Assembly (NCBI GenBank): GCA_963665295.1
Contig: OY762209.1
Span: forward strand, 1,056,001-1,120,000
Direction: 5' to 3'
DNA: 64,000 nt
Origin: Syntrophorhabdaceae bacterium
GTDB taxonomy: Bacteria; Desulfobacterota; Syntrophorhabdia; Syntrophorhabdales; Syntrophorhabdaceae
Both the position numbers and the translations under genes were made by a program. Within the stretch, counting starts at the first letter, position 1. Each line of letters starts with the position of its first letter. The notes below the pieces were generated by a model. The model searched no databases, was not told the origin of the DNA, and saw only the letters and a list, made by a program, of their open reading frames with translations. Shown here in pieces: positions 7,002-31,049 of this stretch.

Positions 7002-8275
7002 TTAAGCTCCTTTCTTGCCTTTATCGCCTCTCCGTGGGCAAAGAGACCTTCGATCCGGGACAGCCTTATGGCGCTGTCGCCGTATTGTTCGACAAATTCT
7101 TTCTCCACCTTCACCACTGCCTTTCTCCTCATGAAGGTGTCAACGGAAAGCCCTGCGGTGAACCTCCCCGCCCCGCTCGTGGGAAGGACGTGGTTCGTGC
7201 CTATGTAGTAATCCCCCATGGCCACCGGGGTATAAGGGCCTACATAGAGGATACCCGCGTAAAGGATCTTCCGCTCCAGGGTCTCGTCGCCTATGAGTTC
7301 CATATGTTCCGGGGCGATGGCGTTGACCAGGGTCACCGCCTTTTCCGTGTCCGGGCAGTATGCGAGAAAACCGTTGTCCTCAAGGGCCTTTTCCATGACA
7401 GCCCTTCTCGGGCTCCCTGCGGCCAGCTCCTCCATCTTCCTCCGGACAAGTTCCAGGTGCTCCCTGGAGGGCGAAAAAAGCCCTACCATGGCCATCTCGT
7501 CGTGCTCGGCCTGGGACAGGAGGTCCCATGCGAGGGCATTCGGGTCAAAGGGCTCTGTGCAAAGCACGACCAGTTCCGACGGTCCCGCGAGCATGTCTAT
7601 GCCCACCCTCCCGTACACATCCCGCTTTGCTTCCTCCACATAGGCGTTGCCCGGCCCGACTATCATATCCACCTTGGGAATGGAGCCGGTGCCGTAGGAA
7701 AAGGCATATATGGCCTGGGCCCCGCCGATCCTGTACACTCCCGTAACGCCGAGAAGTTCGCATGCGGCCAGTATGTAAGGGTTTATCACTCCATCCTTCG
7801 AAGGGGTGGCCACGAATATCTCGCTCACGCCGGCCAACTGGGCCGGCACGACCCCCATGGTCACCGACGAAGGGTACGGCGCGGTTCCGCCCGGCACGTA
7901 GACCATGGCCCTTTCCACGGGCACCCATTCGTCCTTCACCAGAAGGCCCTTGCTTTTGTAGGTCCTGCCCCGGGTCTTCTGGGTCCGGTGGTAGGCCCTC
8001 ACGTTCTTTATCATGCCTTTGAGTATTGCCGCGTCGGCCTTCGGTATCCCGGAAGCAGCTTCTTGTATCTCTTCGGCGGGGACTTTGAGCGGGTGGTCAT
8101 GCTGCCAGCCGTCCCACTTCCTTCCGAACTCCCGGAGTGCACCCTCCCCTTCGGCGAGGAGCGCCTGCTTTATGCCCTTGACCGCGGCGGTGATGCTTGT
8201 CTTTCTCTTCTCTCTGCCTTCCAGGATGAAGGGGACGAAGTAATCGAACTCTCTCTCAATGTCCCATATCTTCAT
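6998..8275 (-). CDS. hisD: Histidinol dehydrogenase
   Basis: [38 protein letters not shown]. Confidence 0.95.
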
Positions 8276-22261: not shown

Positions 22262-25200
22262 CTAACCCATCGATTCCTGCTCATGTTTTTCTAGTCTCGC
22301 GAAAAGCTTATCAATATAGTTATCCCGGTCATCAGTCATAAAGAGCACATGCTGGTCTTCAAGCTCTTCCTGTGTTTTGCCCCATTTCAATTGCGGGTAT
22401 GGCGACCATGAAAGAATGAAGCTGTTGAGAATTACGTTCGGATCGTTCAACCGCTTCTCGATCTCCTTGATGCGCCTATGAAGCAGGACCTTCTCGCTGC
22501 CTGGCCCCTCTCCATGAAGAAGGCCATGAGGGTCAAGAAACGTTACGTATTGCTTGTCTCCGGTCAATACCCAAAAAATAAAGTCTGGGTAGAAACTCCC
22601 AGCCTCGAAAAAACCTACGCCTTTGCCACGGCTCATGTTTCTGAGAAGGAAAAGCTCTGTTTCGTTGTTTTCAAGGGCAGTTCTGTTTGTATTGCACCAG
22701 CCCCTCAGGTCCGTGACGAACTGATATTCACTCTCATTGAGCATTACCGGCAGAACTGTGATTTTGCCACCTTTAGGGACATGAAAGAGCGGTTGAAAAA
22801 GGTGTTTCCCGAAATTACAGGCATTGAGACCACCGGCCTGAAGAAGATCGTCCTTTCGCAACTCCAGGTCCCTCTTTATCTGATTGATTCCCTGAATGAC
22901 CTGGGCCTCGTCGCCATCGACGATAAGCTGATACAGTTCCTCAGTCGGCAGGTTGTCATCGTCCGGCGTCAGCTCGCGGAGTTCGAGGCGCGGTTCGATG
23001 TATTCACGCTTGCGATAGTTGTAATAATGCTCACAGTATCGCTTCAGGAGTTCGCCGGCGATCTGCTGGAGGAGCATGACGCCTTTGAGGTCCGCAGGAT
23101 TAAGCCAGGCTTCAGGCAGGTATAGGACATACCACGAAGAGTCTCCCAGTAAAGCACGGATCCCGCCTTTGGTAATGTTGAGGTTATACCAGCTTTTTTC
23201 ACGCTTGAACTGTTCCAACTCAAAGAACAGGGCGTCATAATCAAGTAATGCAAGGTGGCGTCCGCGAAAATATGCGTTGCTTTTCCCGGCTGCAGAACTC
23301 GTCCCTTTCGACTGCACGGCCTGAATTCGGGGATACCAATCAGCCGTAACCCTATTGGCAGTCAAGTAGCCGGGGACAACTCCCACGGTGGGGACAGGGC
23401 CGTCCTTCTTGAAGTCGTACTCCTTGCCGTCCGATGCCTTCCGTTTAGGCCGGAGTATTTTCAATCTTTTGCCAAAATCATAGGTCACATTCAGCGGAAC
23501 TGTAATGACGGTCCTGCGCTCGTTTCCGGGCAAGCCTTCCTCTCTTAAGAATTCCCGGAATCTTTCCATAAAATCAGCCTCGATCCCGAAAACGTTGAGC
23601 GTCTCGATCTCAGGGATGAAGACAGGTTGCACGGGCGCATGGGATCTGCCGCTCCGCTTCAGGCTCCACTCGTATCCTTTAAGGCGGACGCCCCGGCCGA
23701 ATAGTTGGATAATCTGTGTCCCTTCGCTTTTCCCCACATGCATGAGCCCCAGGGTGCTTACACGCCAGCAGTCCCAACCTTCCACAAACTTCTTGGACCC
23801 GATGAGAAGATTGACAGCAGACGAGGAATCTTTTACCGAGGCAAACGTGGCTTCCGTAAAATCGCTGTCTTCTACTTTCAACGGAATATGGTTTTGAGCT
23901 GCCACCTCTGCAACGTGGTCGCAGAGTCCTTTTGCGTCCCCAACATTTATCAGCCCGAAGGGAAGCTCCGCTCCACCTACGCGTAGCGCTACCTCTCCCG
24001 AATCCCCCTTGATCCTCTCAAGTTCAAGGGTTCCGCCTGCGTCGTTATTGAAGAGGCGCCGGAGGATGTCACGATAGATCTGCTCCATCGTTTCTCCGGC
24101 ATTCATCGATTCTGCGAGATAGGTAAAAGAACCGGCGAAAATGTCGTTGCCGTCCTTGTCGATGAGGCCGGTGTCCTGACCCTTTCCGGTGAGGACCTTA
24201 TCCATTCTTTTGCACGCTGCCTGCCGGTCATGAAGGAAATCAGCGATGAACTGGATTATCAGGGCCACATCTGTGGCCACAATCCTATCATCTTCCGAAC
24301 CACCCTTGGCCTTTGAGACAGTGCTCCCCACGAAAACCCAGAGGGGTTTTTCGATGTTGAAGGGTGCGAACTCCTTTGATTTGTCATCGTAAATCCGCAA
24401 TTGCTGATAGAACTTAAGGAGACAAGCCGTCAGATACATGGCCCGCATGTCGTCAAACGACTTCGGGAGGTTCAGTATCTGATAGTCCTTTCCAAAACCA
24501 TCCTCATAGAACCACCGGTAGGAATAATCAAAAATAATGGTTTTGGCATAGCTATTCTCGAAGTCCTTGTTGTTGGCCGCCGATACCGCCTGCTCGAAAG
24601 TGGCCGAATACTCGAAGGTGAATCCTTTTGCACAGAGGTCGGAACGACGGGTGAACCATGCGCCCTCCTCTTTTCCGCTCATGCCCCGGTGTCCTTCATC
24701 GACGAGAAGCAGGTTTTGATCGCCCAGGCTTCTGGTGGCAATCGTGTTGGGGCCTTCCTGATCGCCCAATTTTGTTATCTCGATAACATCGACCTGGTCG
24801 AATGCACCCTGTTTGGATAGATCAAGCTTTTTCACCGACCAGAATCCACTTTCCTGGAATTCGATAATGTGCTGCTCGCTGAGACGCTCATTAGGAGTAA
24901 GCAGGATAGCTCGGGAAAGAACCTTTTCCTCGCCATGTCTTTTGGCATAATGGCGGTATTGAAGCAGATTGACATGCATAAGCAGCGTCTTCCCGCTGCC
25001 CGTTGCGTTCTGAAGGCAGAGTTTGTTCAGGTCGTCTTCAGAATACGGCGGGATGTCGGCGTATTCAGGCCAGTGGTGATTGAACCGATTCACAAAGACA
25101 TTGAGGTCTTTTAGAAGCGCCTGGCGATTCCCCAGGAAACGGTCCAGATATATTTCCGTGAAGAGGAGCGTCAGCCATTGAAAATACTTCCACACAACAG

Positions 25201-25522
25201 GCCTGCGTCGCTTCTCGTTAATGGCCTGGGTATGGCGCACAATATTTTCTTCATAGAGCAGAATCTGTTCCTTGCTGATGGCCGCCAGATCATTCCAGAA
25301 GAGGGTGCTGTTTACCAGGGCGTGGTAGAAATGGTGGAGATTGTCGTGATCGAGACCTTCACGGCATTTCTTGAGCGGTTCTGCCAGATCGTGGAAGGGC
25401 CTGGTAGTCCCTGTGTATCTGTCGGCAAGAGGGTCAATACCGAAGAGGCCCATGAGCCACTGATTGAGGACAAGCTTGTTGCGGAAGGCGTGCTGTTTGG
25501 GACCCTTTGATTTCTTAGCCAT
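22262..25522 (-). CDS. Type III-like restriction enzyme Res subunit (SF2 helicase plus C-terminal nuclease)
   Basis: ATGSGKT, VDEGH, SATF, EGWD, QLFGRGVR, FYPDF...DPHG; downstream of mod. Confidence 0.85.
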   Translation of the reverse strand: MAKKSKGPKQHAFRNKLVLNQWLMGLFGIDPLADRYTGTTRPFHDLAEPLKKCREGLDHDNLHHFYHALVNSTLFWNDLAAISKEQILLYEENIVRHTQAINEKRRRPVVWKYFQWLTLLFTEIYLDRFLGNRQALLKDLNVFVNRFNHHWPEYADIPPYSEDDLNKLCLQNATGSGKTLLMHVNLLQYRHYAKRHGEEKVLSRAILLTPNERLSEQHIIEFQESGFWSVKKLDLSKQGAFDQVDVIEITKLGDQEGPNTIATRSLGDQNLLLVDEGHRGMSGKEEGAWFTRRSDLCAKGFTFEYSATFEQAVSAANNKDFENSYAKTIIFDYSYRWFYEDGFGKDYQILNLPKSFDDMRAMYLTACLLKFYQQLRIYDDKSKEFAPFNIEKPLWVFVGSTVSKAKGGSEDDRIVATDVALIIQFIADFLHDRQAACKRMDKVLTGKGQDTGLIDKDGNDIFAGSFTYLAESMNAGETMEQIYRDILRRLFNNDAGGTLELERIKGDSGEVALRVGGAELPFGLINVGDAKGLCDHVAEVAAQNHIPLKVEDSDFTEATFASVKDSSSAVNLLIGSKKFVEGWDCWRVSTLGLMHVGKSEGTQIIQLFGRGVRLKGYEWSLKRSGRSHAPVQPVFIPEIETLNVFGIEADFMERFREFLREEGLPGNERRTVITVPLNVTYDFGKRLKILRPKRKASDGKEYDFKKDGPVPTVGVVPGYLTANRVTADWYPRIQAVQSKGTSSAAGKSNAYFRGRHLALLDYDALFFELEQFKREKSWYNLNITKGGIRALLGDSSWYVLYLPEAWLNPADLKGVMLLQQIAGELLKRYCEHYYNYRKREYIEPRLELRELTPDDDNLPTEELYQLIVDGDEAQVIQGINQIKRDLELRKDDLLQAGGLNACNFGKHLFQPLFHVPKGGKITVLPVMLNESEYQFVTDLRGWCNTNRTALENNETELFLLRNMSRGKGVGFFEAGSFYPDFIFWVLTGDKQYVTFLDPHGLLHGEGPGSEKVLLHRRIKEIEKRLNDPNVILNSFILSWSPYPQLKWGKTQEELEDQHVLFMTDDRDNYIDKLFARLEKHEQESMG

Positions 25523-25644: not shown

Positions 25645-26697
25645 CTAATCACTATCTCGCCCCGACGTTTCTATTGCTTTTTCCATGCGTCTCAGTTCCT
25701 CATCATCAGAAAGGGCTTCAGTTTCAGCCTCAGTGGCGAGGCGATGGTGGTTGAATACCTCGTATTGCTTGAGCGCCAGCGTGTCGGCAACCTCCTTGGA
25801 AACCTTTCCTGCGTTTTCAAGGATCTCTCGTTCGTTGAAACGCAAGAAGGCATTCAGTTTTTCGCGCCAATCCCTCATAAAAATCTGTCTATGCCGTTTC
25901 GCCTGGTCTTCAGCATAGTCCAGATACATACTTACAATGCGGTTGAGTCCGGCAAGCTCCTCTTCGTTCAGGTAGTTTTTTGCAATCGTCACATCGCCCT
26001 TACGAACCTTCGTTCCTTTCCATGATGTAAGGCCCATGTTGGGCTTTTTTGCATCGGCCCGCCCGGCAATCAATTCCGCTGCCGTCTTACCGGAAATGGC
26101 GAAGTGCAGTTTGTTCTGGACGATCCGGAAGAACGTCAATGTCTCCTCTGCTTTAGGATTGTAGTCAACGGCCAGTTTGTAGATATCACGAATTTTCTGG
26201 TAGAATCGCTTTTCGCTGGATCGGATATCCCGAATCCGCTCCAGCATCTCGTCGAAGTAATCAGAACCGATGTTCGTGCCCGCCTTGAGACGGTCATCGT
26301 CCATGGTGAAGCCCTTTACGAGGTACTCGTTTAGACGTTCCGTAGCCCAGATGCGGAACTGAGTGCCACGATATGACTTTACCCGGTACCCTACCGCAAT
26401 AATGGCCTCCAGATTGTAGTGCCGGACGGAGCGTTGGATTTGTCTGCCGCCTTCCTGACGAACTATTAAGTAATCCTTAATAGTTGCCTTTTCCGAAACC
26501 TCACCCTCATCGTAAATATTCTTCAGGTGAATGTTGATATTGGGAACGGTTGTTTGAAACAAGTCCGCCATTGCCGCCTGGGTCAGCCAAACGGTTTGGC
26601 CCTCTATCCGTATTTCGATACGAGTTTTTCCATCTTCTGTCTGATAGAGCAAGAATTGACTGTTTTCCGGGAGGCCGGGTGTATTATTCTTTGCCAT
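25645..26697 (-). CDS. RhuM-family DNA-binding protein
   Basis: TVWLTQ, HYNLEAIIAVGYRVKS, FRIWAT, IRDIRSSEKRFY, AKNYL. Confidence 0.88.
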   Translation of the reverse strand: MAKNNTPGLPENSQFLLYQTEDGKTRIEIRIEGQTVWLTQAAMADLFQTTVPNINIHLKNIYDEGEVSEKATIKDYLIVRQEGGRQIQRSVRHYNLEAIIAVGYRVKSYRGTQFRIWATERLNEYLVKGFTMDDDRLKAGTNIGSDYFDEMLERIRDIRSSEKRFYQKIRDIYKLAVDYNPKAEETLTFFRIVQNKLHFAISGKTAAELIAGRADAKKPNMGLTSWKGTKVRKGDVTIAKNYLNEEELAGLNRIVSMYLDYAEDQAKRHRQIFMRDWREKLNAFLRFNEREILENAGKVSKEVADTLALKQYEVFNHHRLATEAETEALSDDEELRRMEKAIETSGRDSD

Positions 26698-26698
26698 A

Positions 26699-29600
26699 TT
26701 ATACCCCCTCCGTATCCCACATTCTTTTCATAAACTCTTCTTCGATGAGACGGACCTTCCATGTGTCGCCTTCTTTCAGAAGATTGGGCAGGTTGTTGCT
26801 CCCATTGACGTAAATTGTATCGAACTCAAAATCACGAGTACTGATACGATTCTTCTCGAACCACTCGTCGAGCATGAGGTTATCCGTCTCCGGATCACCG
26901 GTCAGTCTTCGCCAGACGATGAGCACCTTTTCCTTTTGGCCGTTGTTTGGGTTTTGCCGGTCTTTCGGGACCCAGCCTTCAACCTTGCGGAACCACCAGC
27001 GACAATGATCAGGTGACAATGAACAATGAGCAGGTGACAATGAACAATGAGCAGGTGACAATGAACAATGAGCAGGTGACAATGAACAATGAGCAGGTGA
27101 CAATGAACAATGAGCAGGTGACAATGAACAATGATCAGGTGACAATGAACAATGATCAGGTGACAATGAACAATGATCAGGGTCATCTTTTGGTTCAATT
27201 TGTTCATTGTTCATTGATAATTGTTCATTGACCTTCCGCATCTTGCCGTCAATGACAAGCTTCGTATGCTGATCGGTGGGAAGCTCCGGATCGGAAAGTC
27301 GCATGAAGCCTGCCGTAAAGACCTGGGGTTCGGCAATGTGGATCACTCTGAGGCCAATAAGGTAATTGAAGGTTTCGAGGAGGTCCACGTTGCGGTTCAC
27401 GTATTCGTCGCTTCCCGGCTTCTTCACTTTCAAAGTATAGGCGGTGGGATCGGAAAAAGCATCGATATTGAGAAGCGATTGACTCCCCTTTGTCTCCACA
27501 TCAAGGAGATAGTGGAGCATGAAATCCTCTTCGAGGGAAGCATTGGCCGCCACCGCCTTATCGCGGGTCGGGTTAACGTCAAAACGGAGGTTGTTCAGAG
27601 TGTCTTCGTAGGATTCGAGGCGGAGGTACTTGAAGCAGTGGGAGATACCCGTGTGACGGGCTGTGGGCTTGCCGTCTTTCCAGTCAGCGGAATAGACCAC
27701 CTTCACTATTCGAGGTTTGAGCACGGTGTCGAAATAGTCACCCATTTCAACGAGGATATACTTCCGGTTACCGCTATCTCCTCGATTGAGGTTAATGACG
27801 GCGTGAGCGGTAGTGCCAGACCCGGCAAAGTAGTCGAGAACGATACCATCATATTCTTCTTTCAGTCCACACACCGCGAGGCAATCCTCAACGGCATATA
27901 ACGATTTTGGGTACGAGAACACATTGTAGGTGTCAAAATATTGTTTCAGTAAGCCAGTTCCATGTTCTGTAGCCGAGTACTTCGCGTCTACCCAGGTCGT
28001 GAGTGGGAGAACCCCATCTTTGCCTGGTCTGAATCGGTAGTACACGGTAATGGAGTCTCCTTGGACTTTTGCCCGGTAATCTTTCGAAGAGTTCGTTATG
28101 TTCTCAGGTTTTCCGCGCCACCTTCGCTCAGCACCTTGTTCGTCAATTGGGTAGACCACGATTTCGTCGGCCTTCGGTTGCTCCGTAATATCCCACGTCC
28201 TGCAGTCGTCATTCCAATTCATTTTCGGTATACGAACGCTTTCTCCGCAAATATATAGGGGATAATAAAGTGAAGGCCGGTCTTTGCGTTCCGAATTGGA
28301 GCCTCGCTTTCTGAACAACTCCCACATATAAGCCCGGCCTTTTTCGTCGTTGTGTCTATAACGAGCGGCTTGTTTTTCCGATCTTGGAAGCTTAGAGATG
28401 GTTGCGGCGGGAGTATTCTTCATGAAGATGGCATATTCATGGGACTGTGCAAATCCCGAAGGAACAGGGCGTCCCGATGGGTTCATCCTTATTGTTACCG
28501 TGCCTGCGTGGCAATTCTGGTCGAACTCCTGTTCCAAAAGGAAATGAAGTTCCTTCTGTTGGTAATCATCGATTGTTGCACAGAGTATCCCACTGACCGG
28601 CAAAAGAAGTTTTGATATGTGAACTCGGTCAGCAAGCAGTGATATCCAGGAAGAACTTCGGTATCCATTCTTGTAGCTAATCGGTCCAGCATCTGTGTTG
28701 TATGGGGGGTCGATATATATGGACCTTATCCTTTCTTTATATCGCTCCCTTAACTGGTTCAGGGCCTGGAAATTCTCCGAATGAATCAGCAAGCCATCGC
28801 ACTGTTCGTCCAATCCTTCAATTGATGAAACAAGCCGCTCCTTAAACTTATCATCAAAAAATTGAGTATCGAGCACCAGTTTATTGTGGGCTTTCAGAAA
28901 AGCCAACGTGAGAGGTCTGGAGTAGCCCGGCGTATCGGGGGCAGCTAAATCACCGCGCACCATCTCGATCCCGTCAATCGCAAAGAGTTTCACCCACTCC
29001 TCGCGTTGAGCCTCATTGGCGGCTATCTCCGGATAGAGGTCTTCGGGTATCCGATCAAGGGTGATGCAGTAATTAGTCTCCACAACGAACTTCTTCTTTA
29101 GCCAGAGCTTCTTCTGGAAGTTTTCGAGCTGCGCGAGAAAGTCGATCAGTTTTCCGGCTATTCTCCGGAGGACCTTGATTTTTGCCAGATAGCTTTCTAC
29201 TGCCGGGGCTTCGGCGTTCTCAATGTCATCGAGGCGCATCACCTCGTTTTTGATATAGAAGTCCAGCTCCCGGCGGAGGAAAGCGCCCAGGTCTTTGTGG
29301 ATGAAGTAATCCATGGTGTTCCGTGCCGTATACTGGTTCACATATTTTGCCAGGAGGGGCCGTTTCTTGTCGTTCTCCGTGGGGGCAGGGATGCTGAAAA
29401 GGCGTAAATAGGCCGCCAGACTCGCCATGTCGCCGGCCATTGCCTTCAGCGACGAAAGAATGGCCGCCACGGCCTCGACATTTCTCTTGTCTTTCCATGT
29501 ACCTTCCTGCCCTGATTTTTCCGGGTCGGGACGGTACTCAAAGTTGACCACCATCTCACCCGCATCATTCAATTCAACAGGCTTCTCCTTGTGAATAATG

Positions 29601-30325
29601 AAGTAACGCTTGGTTGCGTCACTGGCCTTAACATTGCCGTGTTCCCCTTCTGTTGCCTCGACGATACGGAAGTTCACCCTGAATCCATCAGGAATGTTCT
29701 CCTCGGCGGCACCAAAGAGACCGCCCATTCCAGGGTCCTTTTCTTTCGTGTTCTTTTGTATCTGGGCTTGTGCAGCTGACGAAAGATCGAAGGTGAAATT
29801 GGAAAAATACTCCGTGGTCTTAATATAGTACTGGTCAGCGTTGGCCCAGTGGAGCTTGACTTCTTCCCCGCTGTAAGGCACAGCAAAAGGCGCGGAACGT
29901 CCTTCTGTCTCACGGGCATAGTACCGACGGGAAATAAAATCGCCGTCGTCATAATAGCGCTCAAAGAAGCGGTAAAGGTGGTCGTAAATGTCCGCCTCGG
30001 CAGCGACGGAACCCGCGACTGCCTCGTATCGCCCCCGAACTTCTTTCACTGCGTCGGTCTGCTCGGGATCGGGGGCTCCAAACTTTCTTGCCGTCTCTAT
30101 GGCGTCATCTATTTTTGCCTGCAGTGTTGTTTTCTGTATCTGGTCAACTTCTCCGAAGGCATCCTCCACGATTTTAAGAAGGTCCTTTTCAATAAACTCC
30201 GAAACCTGTCGGGCCTTGGCATGCATAATCCGGTAGAAACCGAAATCGAGGTCAGGCTGGTCAAGCTGAAAAAGCTCCTTCAGTTTCTTAAGGAGACGGG
30301 TCCGAAGTTGTTCTGTGGTGGGCAT
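26699..30325 (-). CDS. Type III-like adenine DNA methyltransferase (Mod) with in-frame repeat insertion near the C-terminus
   Basis: IYIDPPYN followed by DYFAGSGTT (beta-class order); ATG at 30325 with GGAG 9 nt upstream. Confidence 0.9.
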   Translation of the reverse strand: MPTTEQLRTRLLKKLKELFQLDQPDLDFGFYRIMHAKARQVSEFIEKDLLKIVEDAFGEVDQIQKTTLQAKIDDAIETARKFGAPDPEQTDAVKEVRGRYEAVAGSVAAEADIYDHLYRFFERYYDDGDFISRRYYARETEGRSAPFAVPYSGEEVKLHWANADQYYIKTTEYFSNFTFDLSSAAQAQIQKNTKEKDPGMGGLFGAAEENIPDGFRVNFRIVEATEGEHGNVKASDATKRYFIIHKEKPVELNDAGEMVVNFEYRPDPEKSGQEGTWKDKRNVEAVAAILSSLKAMAGDMASLAAYLRLFSIPAPTENDKKRPLLAKYVNQYTARNTMDYFIHKDLGAFLRRELDFYIKNEVMRLDDIENAEAPAVESYLAKIKVLRRIAGKLIDFLAQLENFQKKLWLKKKFVVETNYCITLDRIPEDLYPEIAANEAQREEWVKLFAIDGIEMVRGDLAAPDTPGYSRPLTLAFLKAHNKLVLDTQFFDDKFKERLVSSIEGLDEQCDGLLIHSENFQALNQLRERYKERIRSIYIDPPYNTDAGPISYKNGYRSSSWISLLADRVHISKLLLPVSGILCATIDDYQQKELHFLLEQEFDQNCHAGTVTIRMNPSGRPVPSGFAQSHEYAIFMKNTPAATISKLPRSEKQAARYRHNDEKGRAYMWELFRKRGSNSERKDRPSLYYPLYICGESVRIPKMNWNDDCRTWDITEQPKADEIVVYPIDEQGAERRWRGKPENITNSSKDYRAKVQGDSITVYYRFRPGKDGVLPLTTWVDAKYSATEHGTGLLKQYFDTYNVFSYPKSLYAVEDCLAVCGLKEEYDGIVLDYFAGSGTTAHAVINLNRGDSGNRKYILVEMGDYFDTVLKPRIVKVVYSADWKDGKPTARHTGISHCFKYLRLESYEDTLNNLRFDVNPTRDKAVAANASLEEDFMLHYLLDVETKGSQSLLNIDAFSDPTAYTLKVKKPGSDEYVNRNVDLLETFNYLIGLRVIHIAEPQVFTAGFMRLSDPELPTDQHTKLVIDGKMRKVNEQLSMNNEQIEPKDDPDHCSLSPDHCSLSPDHCSLSPAHCSLSPAHCSLSPAHCSLSPAHCSLSPAHCSLSPDHCRWWFRKVEGWVPKDRQNPNNGQKEKVLIVWRRLTGDPETDNLMLDEWFEKNRISTRDFEFDTIYVNGSNNLPNLLKEGDTWKVRLIEEEFMKRMWDTEGV
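27003..27231. repeat. Heptad-repeat hairpin inside mod: 8 full 21-bp units plus partial, short loop, 4 inverted heptads
   Basis: CAATGA(T/G)CAGGTGACAATGAA starting 27003, 27024 ... 27150, partial at 27171; inverted arm TGTTCATTGTTCATTGATAATTGTTCATTGA 27201-27231; encodes (D/A)HCSLSP x8. Confidence 0.95.
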
Positions 30326-30330
30326 TTTTT

Positions 30331-30644
30331 CAATCTCCAATCATCAATGATCAATGAACACTTCTCTTGCGCGAGCACTCTCATGCGCCCGTTTCGGTTT
30401 GTCCATTGTCAATTGTTTACTGTCCATTGTCCCTTGTCAATCTCCAATCATCAATGATCAATGAACACTTCTCTTGCGCGAGCACTCTCATGCGCCCGTT
30501 TCGGTTTGTCCATTGTCAATTGTTTACTGTCCATTGTCCCTTGTCAATCTCCAATCATCAATGATCAATGAACACTTCTCTTGCGCGAGCACTCTCATGC
30601 GCCCGTTTCGGTTTGTCCATTGTCAATTGTTTACTGTTCATTGT
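30331..30644. repeat. Three tandem ~107-bp units, each with inverted heptad arms around an identical core
   Basis: Units start 30331, 30438, 30545 (CAATCTCCAATCATCAATGATCAATGAACAC...GTCCATTGTCAATTGTTTACTGTCCATTGT); third copy slightly truncated. Confidence 0.95.
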
Positions 30645-31049
30645 CTTGCTTATTCTCGTCTTCTTCAAAATAGCAAAAAGGATGGCAGCCACCTCATCCA
30701 CACAGGGAAAAATACTCTCAAAAGACTTGGCGTCCAGGTATCCGGTATCTTTGAGCAAATTCAGCCAATATTTCGTCTCTTGCGCCTCCTTGTATGCGAT
30801 AGAAACCTTGGCCGAAAGATCGGCTTCGGAAATAGCTCCTTTCGCCTCGGCCAGATTTGCCCCAATCGAGGTTCCGCTTTTGAGCAATTGTCTCGACAGC
30901 ACAAACTCACGTTTCTGTTCTGTTAACTGCTTGTAAATATGGACAATGCGAATAGCCAGTGCGTAGGATTTCTCATACGCAGGATTAGGTTTGCTCATTG
31001 TCATCTGTCCATTGCTCATTGTCATCTGCCCATTGTCCATTGTCCTCAT
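30558..31049 (-). CDS. Four-helix-bundle protein (23S rRNA intervening-sequence protein / bAvd-like family)
   Basis: KSYALAIRIV...LSRQLLKSGTSIGANLAEA...SIAYKEAQETKYWLNLL; ATG at 31049 overlaps SNF2 stop, core may start at 30998. Confidence 0.88.
   Translation of the reverse strand: MRTMDNGQMTMSNGQMTMSKPNPAYEKSYALAIRIVHIYKQLTEQKREFVLSRQLLKSGTSIGANLAEAKGAISEADLSAKVSIAYKEAQETKYWLNLLKDTGYLDAKSFESIFPCVDEVAAILFAILKKTRISKTMNSKQLTMDKPKRAHESARAREVFIDH
30992..31049 (-). repeat. Heptad array at the 5' end of the four-helix-bundle gene
   Basis: Minus strand CAATGGA CAATGGG CAGATGA CAATGAG CAATGGA CAGATGA CAATGAG. Confidence 0.9.

Follow-up and report, generated by a model that had tools for sequence, protein, structure and literature searches.

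Why should a small four-helix-bundle (4HB) gene sit between a helicase gene and a methyltransferase gene of one bacterial operon, bordered on both sides by tandem 7-nt words that are complementary to each other? The question is raised by a 64,000-nt stretch of a Syntrophorhabdaceae bacterium (assembly GCA_963665295.1, contig OY762209.1, positions 1,056,001 to 1,120,000), hereafter the window, whose minus strand encodes, in this order, an SNF2 helicase, the 4HB protein, a DNA methyltransferase (Mod), a RhuM-family protein and a restriction subunit (Res). Comparison with related loci showed that the 4HB gene is the cargo of a small cassette with inverted heptad arrays, built like the open reading frame (ORF)-bearing intervening sequences (IVSs) of 23S rRNA. 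Our preferred reading, to which we assign a probability of about 0.55, goes further: the 4HB gene would be the cargo of a heptad-armed, IVS-like cassette that is looped out of the operon transcript and persists as a passenger.

The 4HB gene as cargo of a heptad-armed cassette

Tandem Repeats Finder and pattern matches placed heptads at three sites of the window. At the 5′ end of the 4HB gene (30991-31045) repeats with periods of 7, 14 and 21 nt were found; before mod (30330-30645) the period is 107 nt, in 3.0 copies with 99% matches; and within mod a period of 21 nt (27002-27181; 8.6 copies, 98% matches) stands beside one of 7 nt (27200-27230). The pattern CAATGNNCAATG has 14 matches in the window against 0.12 expected, none of 100 shuffles giving more than one, which rules out a chance origin of the heptad words; all 14 lie within 27017-27216, 30345-30570 or 31010-31042. 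The whole genome (5,508,164 bases) contains seven clusters of at least three CAATG/CATTG words, three of them at this locus and the other four not period-7 arrays, and no further copy of the 107-nt unit, its GC-rich core or the heptad words was found in it. A genome-wide repeat family is thus ruled out, copies being confined to this one locus. A first-pass annotation, made from the letters of the window, had described one heptad vocabulary at these three sites and nowhere else in the 64 kb, with the CAAUG arm before the CAUUG arm on the mRNA and with the array inside mod in frame. These statements hold: the vocabulary is absent from the rest of the genome as well, the arm order is the same in the three 107-nt units and in the mod element, and the mod array encodes PDHCSLS/PAHCSLS repeats.

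The edges of the cassette coincide with those of its neighbours. The TGA stop of the SNF2 gene overlaps the first cassette ATG (ATGA, 31046-31049), the final heptad of the 5′ arm gives an AUG at 30998, equivalent to the start used in five relatives (L060, L069 and L113-L115), and the tail of the 4HB ORF extends into the first 107-nt unit. At the other edge, the mod ATG at 30325 follows 10 nt past the GGAG that closes the last 3′ arm.

Close Mod homologues are encoded at 80 loci from many phyla, in which the order SNF2-Mod-(cargo)-Res is conserved, and in 61 of these the sequence covers the end of SNF2 as well as the start of Mod. The comparison of empty with filled orthologous SNF2-mod sites, proposed earlier as a check, found both kinds: 42 of the 61 junctions are empty, with a spacer of at most 30 nt (the others measure 31-150 nt in 6 loci and more than 150 nt in 13), and six operons hold the cassette. 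In the closest operons the empty spacer consists of the stop codon, GGAATCAGGAGATAACC and ATG, so that the window cassette occupies what is a 17-nt spacer between the SNF2 stop and the mod start. Two of the 80 loci (L060 and L069) and three metagenome contigs (L113-L115; 70-80% protein identity) contain the 4HB cassette; together with the window these make six operons, and the cassette always lies at the SNF2/mod junction. In all six, CAATG-type heptads directly follow the SNF2 stop, the 4HB start is the ATG of the last heptad, and the CATTG-type arm closes with TTGGAGATTGAAA(A)C-ATG, the Shine-Dalgarno (SD) sequence and start of mod. A gene-less CAATG/CATTG hairpin with the same SD-bearing end occupies this junction in L041. 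The SNF2/Mod junction is a general cargo slot, as the 13 long spacers show. L042, whose SNF2 is 94% identical to that of L114, carries there a TIGR04256 GxxExxY gene (144 bits) between complementary CGCGAAA-type and TTTCGCG-type arms.

The same build recurs far outside this operon. Of 61 genomes (that of the window and 60 relatives), 45 contain the 4HB family, with at most 16 matches in any one of them. In the flanks of 30 4HB loci a 7-nt word is repeated ahead of the gene and its complement is repeated behind it, the word varying by locus. A profile built from the genes found gave 127 matches in 113 loci, of which 65, the window locus included, were kept after removal of short flanks, partial coverage and two duplicates. 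When the two flanks of one locus are compared as inverted repeats, 51 of the 65 loci score above the 95th percentile of mismatched upstream/downstream pairs. Period 7 is the unique best in 43/65 upstream and 45/65 downstream flanks, compared with 6/58 and 9/59 of control segments lying 700-1100 nt away, and most of the remaining flanks have a best period of 8 or 9. The first-pass annotation had named a lack of enrichment of heptad arrays near 4HB genes as grounds for abandoning its proposal; the arrays are enriched, and the association of array and gene is therefore real.

Position and orientation follow the pattern seen in the window. From the end of the upstream same-strand ORF to the 5′ arm the median distance is 3 nt, from the 3′ arm to the next start codon it is 13 nt, and long neighbouring ORFs are co-oriented with the cassette in 50 vs 8 cases upstream and 48 vs 9 downstream. 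Five plasmid loci picked by phylum with their flanks unseen (Chondrinema, Euhalothece, Monoglobus, Treponema and Chlorohelix; phyla Bacteroidota, Cyanobacteriota, Bacillota, Spirochaetota and Chloroflexota) all have the same layout, and the Monoglobus plasmid cassette lies between hsdS and hsdR.

Heptad arms are not general for GxxExxY cargo. They are clear at L042, but period 7 is best in only 2/24 upstream and 1/23 downstream flanks of such genes, and inverted flanks exceed the 95th percentile of the null in 5/21 GxxExxY loci of the relatives. The GxxExxY genes of L192-L220 lie inside nested palindromes of recurring GC-rich motifs, not heptads, and several genes of this family are found a few kb from 4HB cassettes on the same contig (e.g. 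G023:C54 and G035:C80).

Table 1 Features of the operon in the window (positions counted from the first letter of the window)
Feature	Position	Strand	Remarks
DrmD-like SNF2 helicase gene, 963 aa	31046..33937	(-)	Upstream host gene; Pfam SNF2-rel_dom and Helicase_C
Four-helix-bundle (4HB) ORF, 163 aa from ATG at 31049	30558..31049	(-)	Family core about 30657-30977
Cassette 5′ arm	30991..31046	(-)	CAAUG-type heptads on mRNA; 21-nt super-period; in-frame AUGs
Three tandem 107-nt units, gene-deleted mini-cassettes	30330..30645	(-)	3.0 copies, 99%; fold z −4.92
Type-III-like DNA methyltransferase gene (mod), 1208 aa	26699..30325	(-)	Downstream host gene; Pfam N6_N4_Mtase; PADLOC MTase_III E 1.5e-198
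In-frame gene-less mini-cassette within mod, 78 codons	26999..27232	(-)	Replaces 5-residue loop (QDxxGP)
RhuM-family gene, variable cargo between mod and res	25645..26697	(-)	Pfam Virulence_RhuM E 9e-116
Type-III-like restriction subunit gene (res)	22262..25522	(-)	PADLOC REase_III E 5.5e-177

Gene-less copies within the operon

Each 107-nt unit is laid out as a 5′ arm with the first ~8 codons of the ORF, followed by a 3′ arm with an SD, the last unit supplying the GGAG that serves mod. Unit positions 5-58 align to cassette 5′ ends (arm, start codon and about eight codons), and positions 67-107 (L114) or 76-107 (L060 and L069) align to the 3′ ends (arm and SD) of the relatives' cassettes; these alignments score 40-53, where the best shuffles reach 26-35. 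On these alignments the units are tandem copies of the cassette from which the gene has been deleted, and the array can therefore be read as a 5′ arm, the ORF and three units of 5′ arm, deleted ORF and 3′ arm. Retention of both parental termini with loss of the interior is the hallmark of miniature inverted-repeat transposable elements (MITEs), and the 107-nt units show it. They had been described in the first-pass annotation as hairpin units: the folding stood (z in Table 1), whereas their status as a free-standing, separate kind did not, the units being gene-deleted cassette copies.

One more gene-less copy of the cassette forms the array within mod, where it is lodged in a permissive surface loop. 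Where the window has its insert, 55 of 66 homologous Mods have a loop of 4-5 residues (QDxxGP-WWFRKVEGW). In the insert a short loop joins a CAAUG arm to a CAUUG arm that has grown to 8.6 × 21 nt (27002-27181); inverted-repeat pairs I1 and I9-I23 were found in it, and 21 nt of it match the 5′ arm of the L069 cassette exactly. The Mod of L114 carries the homologous hairpin in the same loop without expansion (VNEQSTMSNEQTSDIDPCSLSTDHC), and the hairpin is therefore old, while the 21-nt × 8.6 expansion is specific to this genome. A step of 21 nt equals three heptads and seven codons, and is the only one to preserve the repeat together with the reading frame. The expanded array further shows complementarity of 75-82%, across 32-33 nt, to 5′-type arms 3.4-4.0 kb upstream.

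Related operons hold arrays at comparable places. Other words form short-period arrays or hairpins in the same Mod loop of L043, L041, L058, L072, L046 and L047, and CAATG arrays stand in frame elsewhere, namely in a variable SNF2 linker (L034, L037 and L114) and in the middle of Mod in L064. In L072 the loop array is of the TTTCGTG type and encodes FRVFRVFR, and a GAACCAC repeat remnant lies at the SNF2/Mod junction (7626-7705), which makes it a second operon with repeats at both junction and Mod loop, in a different vocabulary. Arrays retrieved by the CAATG scan in L039, L072, L074 and L094 were set aside as an 11-12-nt repeat or ordinary coding sequence, not heptads; in L039, a contig of a Noviherbaspirillum metagenome-assembled genome (MAG), arrays of an 11-12-nt unit (TGGGACATTGCA) lie at 1-100 and 7130-7180, either side of the Mod-Res genes.

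Could the arrays instead mark a contingency locus, in which slippage-prone tandem repeats (21 nt × 8.6 and 107 nt × 3) vary the length of the Mod loop or the expression of mod, with the 4HB gene a bystander? Phase-variable mod genes do use repeats in this way; the arrays here show 98-99% identity, the expansion belongs to this genome, L114 having one copy, and every 107-nt unit duplicates the mod SD. A 21-nt unit, however, is unable to switch the frame on or off, and such a locus would leave the inverted arms and their generality unexplained; we consider this account improbable. A phase-variable mod of the phasevarion kind was rejected, since the unit of 21 nt is a multiple of three and the array is read through in frame. 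In four DNA runs no joints or copy-number variants were seen, but these are short-read contigs that break at the repeats (27039-27152 and 30359-30608), so that this negative carries no weight for array stability. Run X5 contains a 625-nt contig with a depth of ~1049 in which 101 bases are identical across the edge of the mod insert (27175-27275) and which diverges on both sides, and further short contigs in X3-X5 match the window over 27200-27232 only. These contigs may come from further bearers of these heptads, or they may be chimeras of the assembly.

The first-pass annotation had offered, as one of its two interpretations, a mobile mRNA intervening element with non-autonomous hairpin copies, and this fits the empty and filled junctions, the gene-deleted units and the hairpins of L041 and L114. 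In one operon family the full life cycle of such an element is on display: empty site, full cassette, gene-deleted tandem copies, gene-less hairpin and in-frame loop copy.

Transcript, protein and DNA explanations

How might a cassette be tolerated between two host genes? In our preferred reading, the 5′ CAAUG arm would pair with a 3′ CAUUG arm in the operon transcript, and the stem would loop the cargo out so that the SNF2 stop and the mod SD/AUG meet at the foot of one stem; the loop-out and the adjacency of the host cistrons in RNA are suggested because of the geometry stop/arm ... arm/SD-ATG. The 4HB protein, lacking an SD of its own, would be made by re-initiation after SNF2 termination at an AUG supplied by the arm. 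The stem would make the insertion tolerable, either by keeping SNF2-mod translational coupling or by letting RNase III, a gene for which is present in the genome, trim the cassette out. The element would persist as a passenger that relocates or recombines between operons, and the 4HB protein would most likely act on its own arms.

Predicted folds of the window cassette agree with part of this scheme. For the 766-nt cassette RNA the minimum free energy (MFE) structure and the centroid alike contain a stem between the 5′ arm and the last 3′ arm that takes in the mod SD/AUG (z −3.7), and the first two 3′ arms pair locally with adjoining 5′-type arms. Arm-arm duplexes reach −21 to −28 kcal/mol against −9 to −14 kcal/mol for shuffled arms, and that of the window −28.4 kcal/mol against −13.5 ± 3.8 kcal/mol.

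Several observations weigh against this scheme. In Vienna folds of five subfamily cassettes the long-range stem appears in the MFE structure of only two (the window and L060), and for L069 and L114 the best shuffled arms reach duplex energies similar to the real ones. Arm mismatches at 61 loci comprise 74 of the G:U type and 82 of the A:C type, leaving no RNA-strand signature. As a correction to the first-pass annotation, the mod element folds with no better energy than its shuffles (z −1.25; 17 of 200 shuffles fold equally well). A stem alone would not require conservation of the primary sequence of the arms. The cassette encodes no movement enzyme; no target-site duplication was seen by eye at the junction or the Mod loop; this genome has a single cassette locus and no dispersed copies; and operon recombination with losses could explain the scatter of cassettes on the operon trees (below) instead of repeated insertion. 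Arm pairing, processing and SNF2-mod coupling are all things that we infer from sequence.

The conservation of the arms as words bears on a second explanation, in which an oligomeric 4HB protein recognises its own heptad word, as RNA or DNA, and through the arrays at the junction and within mod tunes the translation, stability or processing of the host operon, much as the first-pass annotation had supposed. The window protein scores 90.9 bits against PF05635 (cut-off 33.8) and 95.3 bits against TIGR02436 (cut-off 24), a large, widespread family with solved structures for which we know of no function outside diversity-generating retroelements (DGRs). It is homologous to PDB entries 2rld (E 3.6e-27) and 2gsc (E 0.0019), both solved with five chains per entry, as would suit an oligomer. 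This is the one clear member of the family in the genome; a weak second PF05635-like match lies outside the window (G000:C1:1170302-1170499; 25.2 bits, under the cut-off; E 6.9e-5) in a 195-aa open frame. None of the six orthologous ORFs is broken over the 111 aligned codons; nonsynonymous divergence (dN) is 0.07-0.20, synonymous divergence (dS) is saturated and omega is 0.049 for the single computable pair, a pattern that indicates strong purifying selection on the protein. Among the cassettes, mean identity at four-fold sites is 0.31, while the 5′ arm reaches 0.72 and the 3′ arm with its SD 0.77; the arms are therefore conserved as sequence and not only as pairing.

An arm-reading protein would account for this conservation at a time when four-fold sites are saturated, for the selection on the 4HB gene, for a period fixed at 7 although the word changes between subfamilies, and for the retention of heptad arrays in gene-less copies; a pentameric toroid is, moreover, cited for the Xanthomonas protein in the available text of PMC4990558. 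Yet the L042 cassette has a GxxExxY gene, unrelated to the 4HB gene, flanked by repeat arms of this kind at the same junction, and repeat arms can therefore exist without the 4HB protein; operons without the 4HB gene (L034, L037 and L064) still carry in-frame CAATG arrays, and conservation of the word could also stem from the AUG and SD embedded in the arms together with concerted evolution of the repeats. We regard such a protein-plus-site module as rather unlikely.

A third explanation places the element at the level of DNA, with the heptad arrays as terminal repeats or hairpin ends for a trans-acting host enzyme, RNA pairing incidental, and the 107-nt units and mod insert MITE-like. The near equality of G:U-type and A:C-type mismatches is what a DNA-level origin of the arm symmetry would lead one to expect, and presence/absence polymorphism with clean empty sites, the existence of internally deleted derivatives and the short-period arrays of other words in the Mod loop of L043 and the five further operons listed above point the same way. 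So does operon history: the four cassette operons that can be placed on trees (window, L060, L069 and L114) do not form one clade on SNF2 (4 changes; approximately unbiased (AU) test p 7e-34) or on the first 380 residues of Mod (4 changes; AU p 3e-4), p-values that are weakened because the tested group was named after the first tree had already been seen. Against a DNA element stand the lack of a transposase and of any visible target-site duplication, the single cassette locus of this genome, and the age of the cassettes, whose dS is saturated. Cassettes are, furthermore, co-oriented with the flanking genes and have their arms a few nt from stop and start codons, which points to transcript-level constraints. 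This explanation is possible but, on balance, doubtful.

The L041 operon is a mosaic, with an SNF2 86% identical to that of L085 (a Methylococcaceae MAG) and a Mod N-terminus 88% identical to that of L033; its gene-less hairpin lies at the mosaic breakpoint.

A bolder version of the looped-out passenger cassette that we prefer would make it a distinct, operon-compatible class of mobile element that spreads through the transcript and not by a transposase. Its arms would loop the cargo out and leave the flanking cistrons coupled, and an Avd-like protein would read its own heptads and recruit a reverse transcriptase or recombination activity of the host, by which the stem-loop would be copied into new stop-start junctions and into permissive loops, with mini-cassettes mobilised in trans. 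We offer this as a long shot.

Host operon and known relatives

The closest published counterpart of the looped-out cassette is the 23S rRNA IVS of Coxiella burnetii. According to the available text of PMC4990558, tandem heptamers of variable copy number directly precede its S23p/PF05635 ORF, which is reported as decaying, a 28-bp terminal stem encloses it, and RNase III was shown experimentally to cut at the first tandem heptamer; rRNA IVSs of Leptospira and others are cited there as well. On that description the window cassette shares with it the S23p/PF05635 ORF, the complementary termini that enclose the ORF in a stem (here predicted), the tandem heptamers preceding an ORF without a good SD of its own, and the sequence GACAGAT, common to the Coxiella heptamer and the window 5′ arm. 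It differs in lying between two protein-coding operon genes, SNF2 and mod, and in carrying the downstream SD, in having gene-less tandem copies and an in-frame copy within coding sequence, and, unlike the decaying Coxiella ORF as there reported, in having an ORF that is under purifying selection. RNase III processing is shown for rRNA inserts only, and would extend to the window cassette by analogy.

The system had been put forward as undescribed. This is correct in part: the same parts occur in ORF-bearing 23S rRNA IVSs, as the available text of PMC4990558 describes them, while full-text literature, supplements not covered, yielded no general description of heptad-flanked 4HB cassettes outside rRNA. 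A published association of heptamer repeats with the 4HB family was found only for the Coxiella rRNA insert, in the available text of the same source. What the present locus adds is tandem mini-cassettes, an in-frame copy in mod, one junction reused by two cargo families, and evidence for selection on both protein and arms.

Avd of DGRs has a homologous four-helix-bundle fold, and in the available text of PMC10053308 PF05635 is termed Avd-like from a comparison of PDB 4DWL with 2GSC. Unlike Avd, the window 4HB gene has no reverse transcriptase beside it. A DGR was rejected because RVT_1 matches occur only at C1:686034-686660 and C1:2650602-2651105, outside the window at C1:1056001-1120000 (no template/variable repeat search was made). 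The flanking genes are SNF2 and mod, and Rfam matched no RNA family between 26000 and 32000 at E up to 1, in agreement with the earlier statement that neither rRNA nor reverse transcriptase is present at the locus. Like MITEs, the 107-nt units and the mod insert keep the parental ends with inverted termini, lack the middle and can sit in frame; unlike MITEs, they have a parent without transposase, show no target-site duplication and are confined to one operon.

In the plasmid pEu1 of Euhalothece natronophila (L222, ~1845-1940) 13 perfect CTGGTCA copies follow the 4HB gene and CCAGT-type heptads precede it. The 13 copies resemble the tandem 7-nt intergenic units of cyanobacteria that we take to be the heptamer repeats called STRR; no literature linking STRR to the 4HB family was found, and any link would be our own suggestion. 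The cassette would offer a testable model for how two translationally coupled genes can take up a third between them and stay intact, and for the origin of bacterial heptamer repeats.

The host operon lies within a stretch of ~49% GC, roughly 15-34 kb of the window, in a genome of 54.7% GC. Its SNF2 protein matches PADLOC DrmD with E 2.8e-208; a scan of six locus proteins gave 697.9 bits for NCBIfam DrmD_b, below the cut-off of 950, and MTase_III and REase_III as the partners. Because the SNF2 protein falls below the DrmD cut-off, the operon is not called DISARM. Annotators of defence islands would have to treat the additional small gene and the unusual repeat peptides of Mod as passengers and not as parts of the restriction system.

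Other contents of the SNF2/Mod junction were noted by eye: a two-gene pair resembling an antitoxin and toxin in L094 and L111, a small DNA-binding protein with a PIN-like protein in L112, and in L092/L093 a 156-aa ORF of a family not recognised by eye. The mod/res junction is a second variable slot of the operon, many loci holding 1-2 kb of other DNA there. RhuM occurs between mod and res in five of the 80 related loci as well (L047, L048, L072, L088 and L090), and in L065 a partial RhuM match lies within the span of the res matches.

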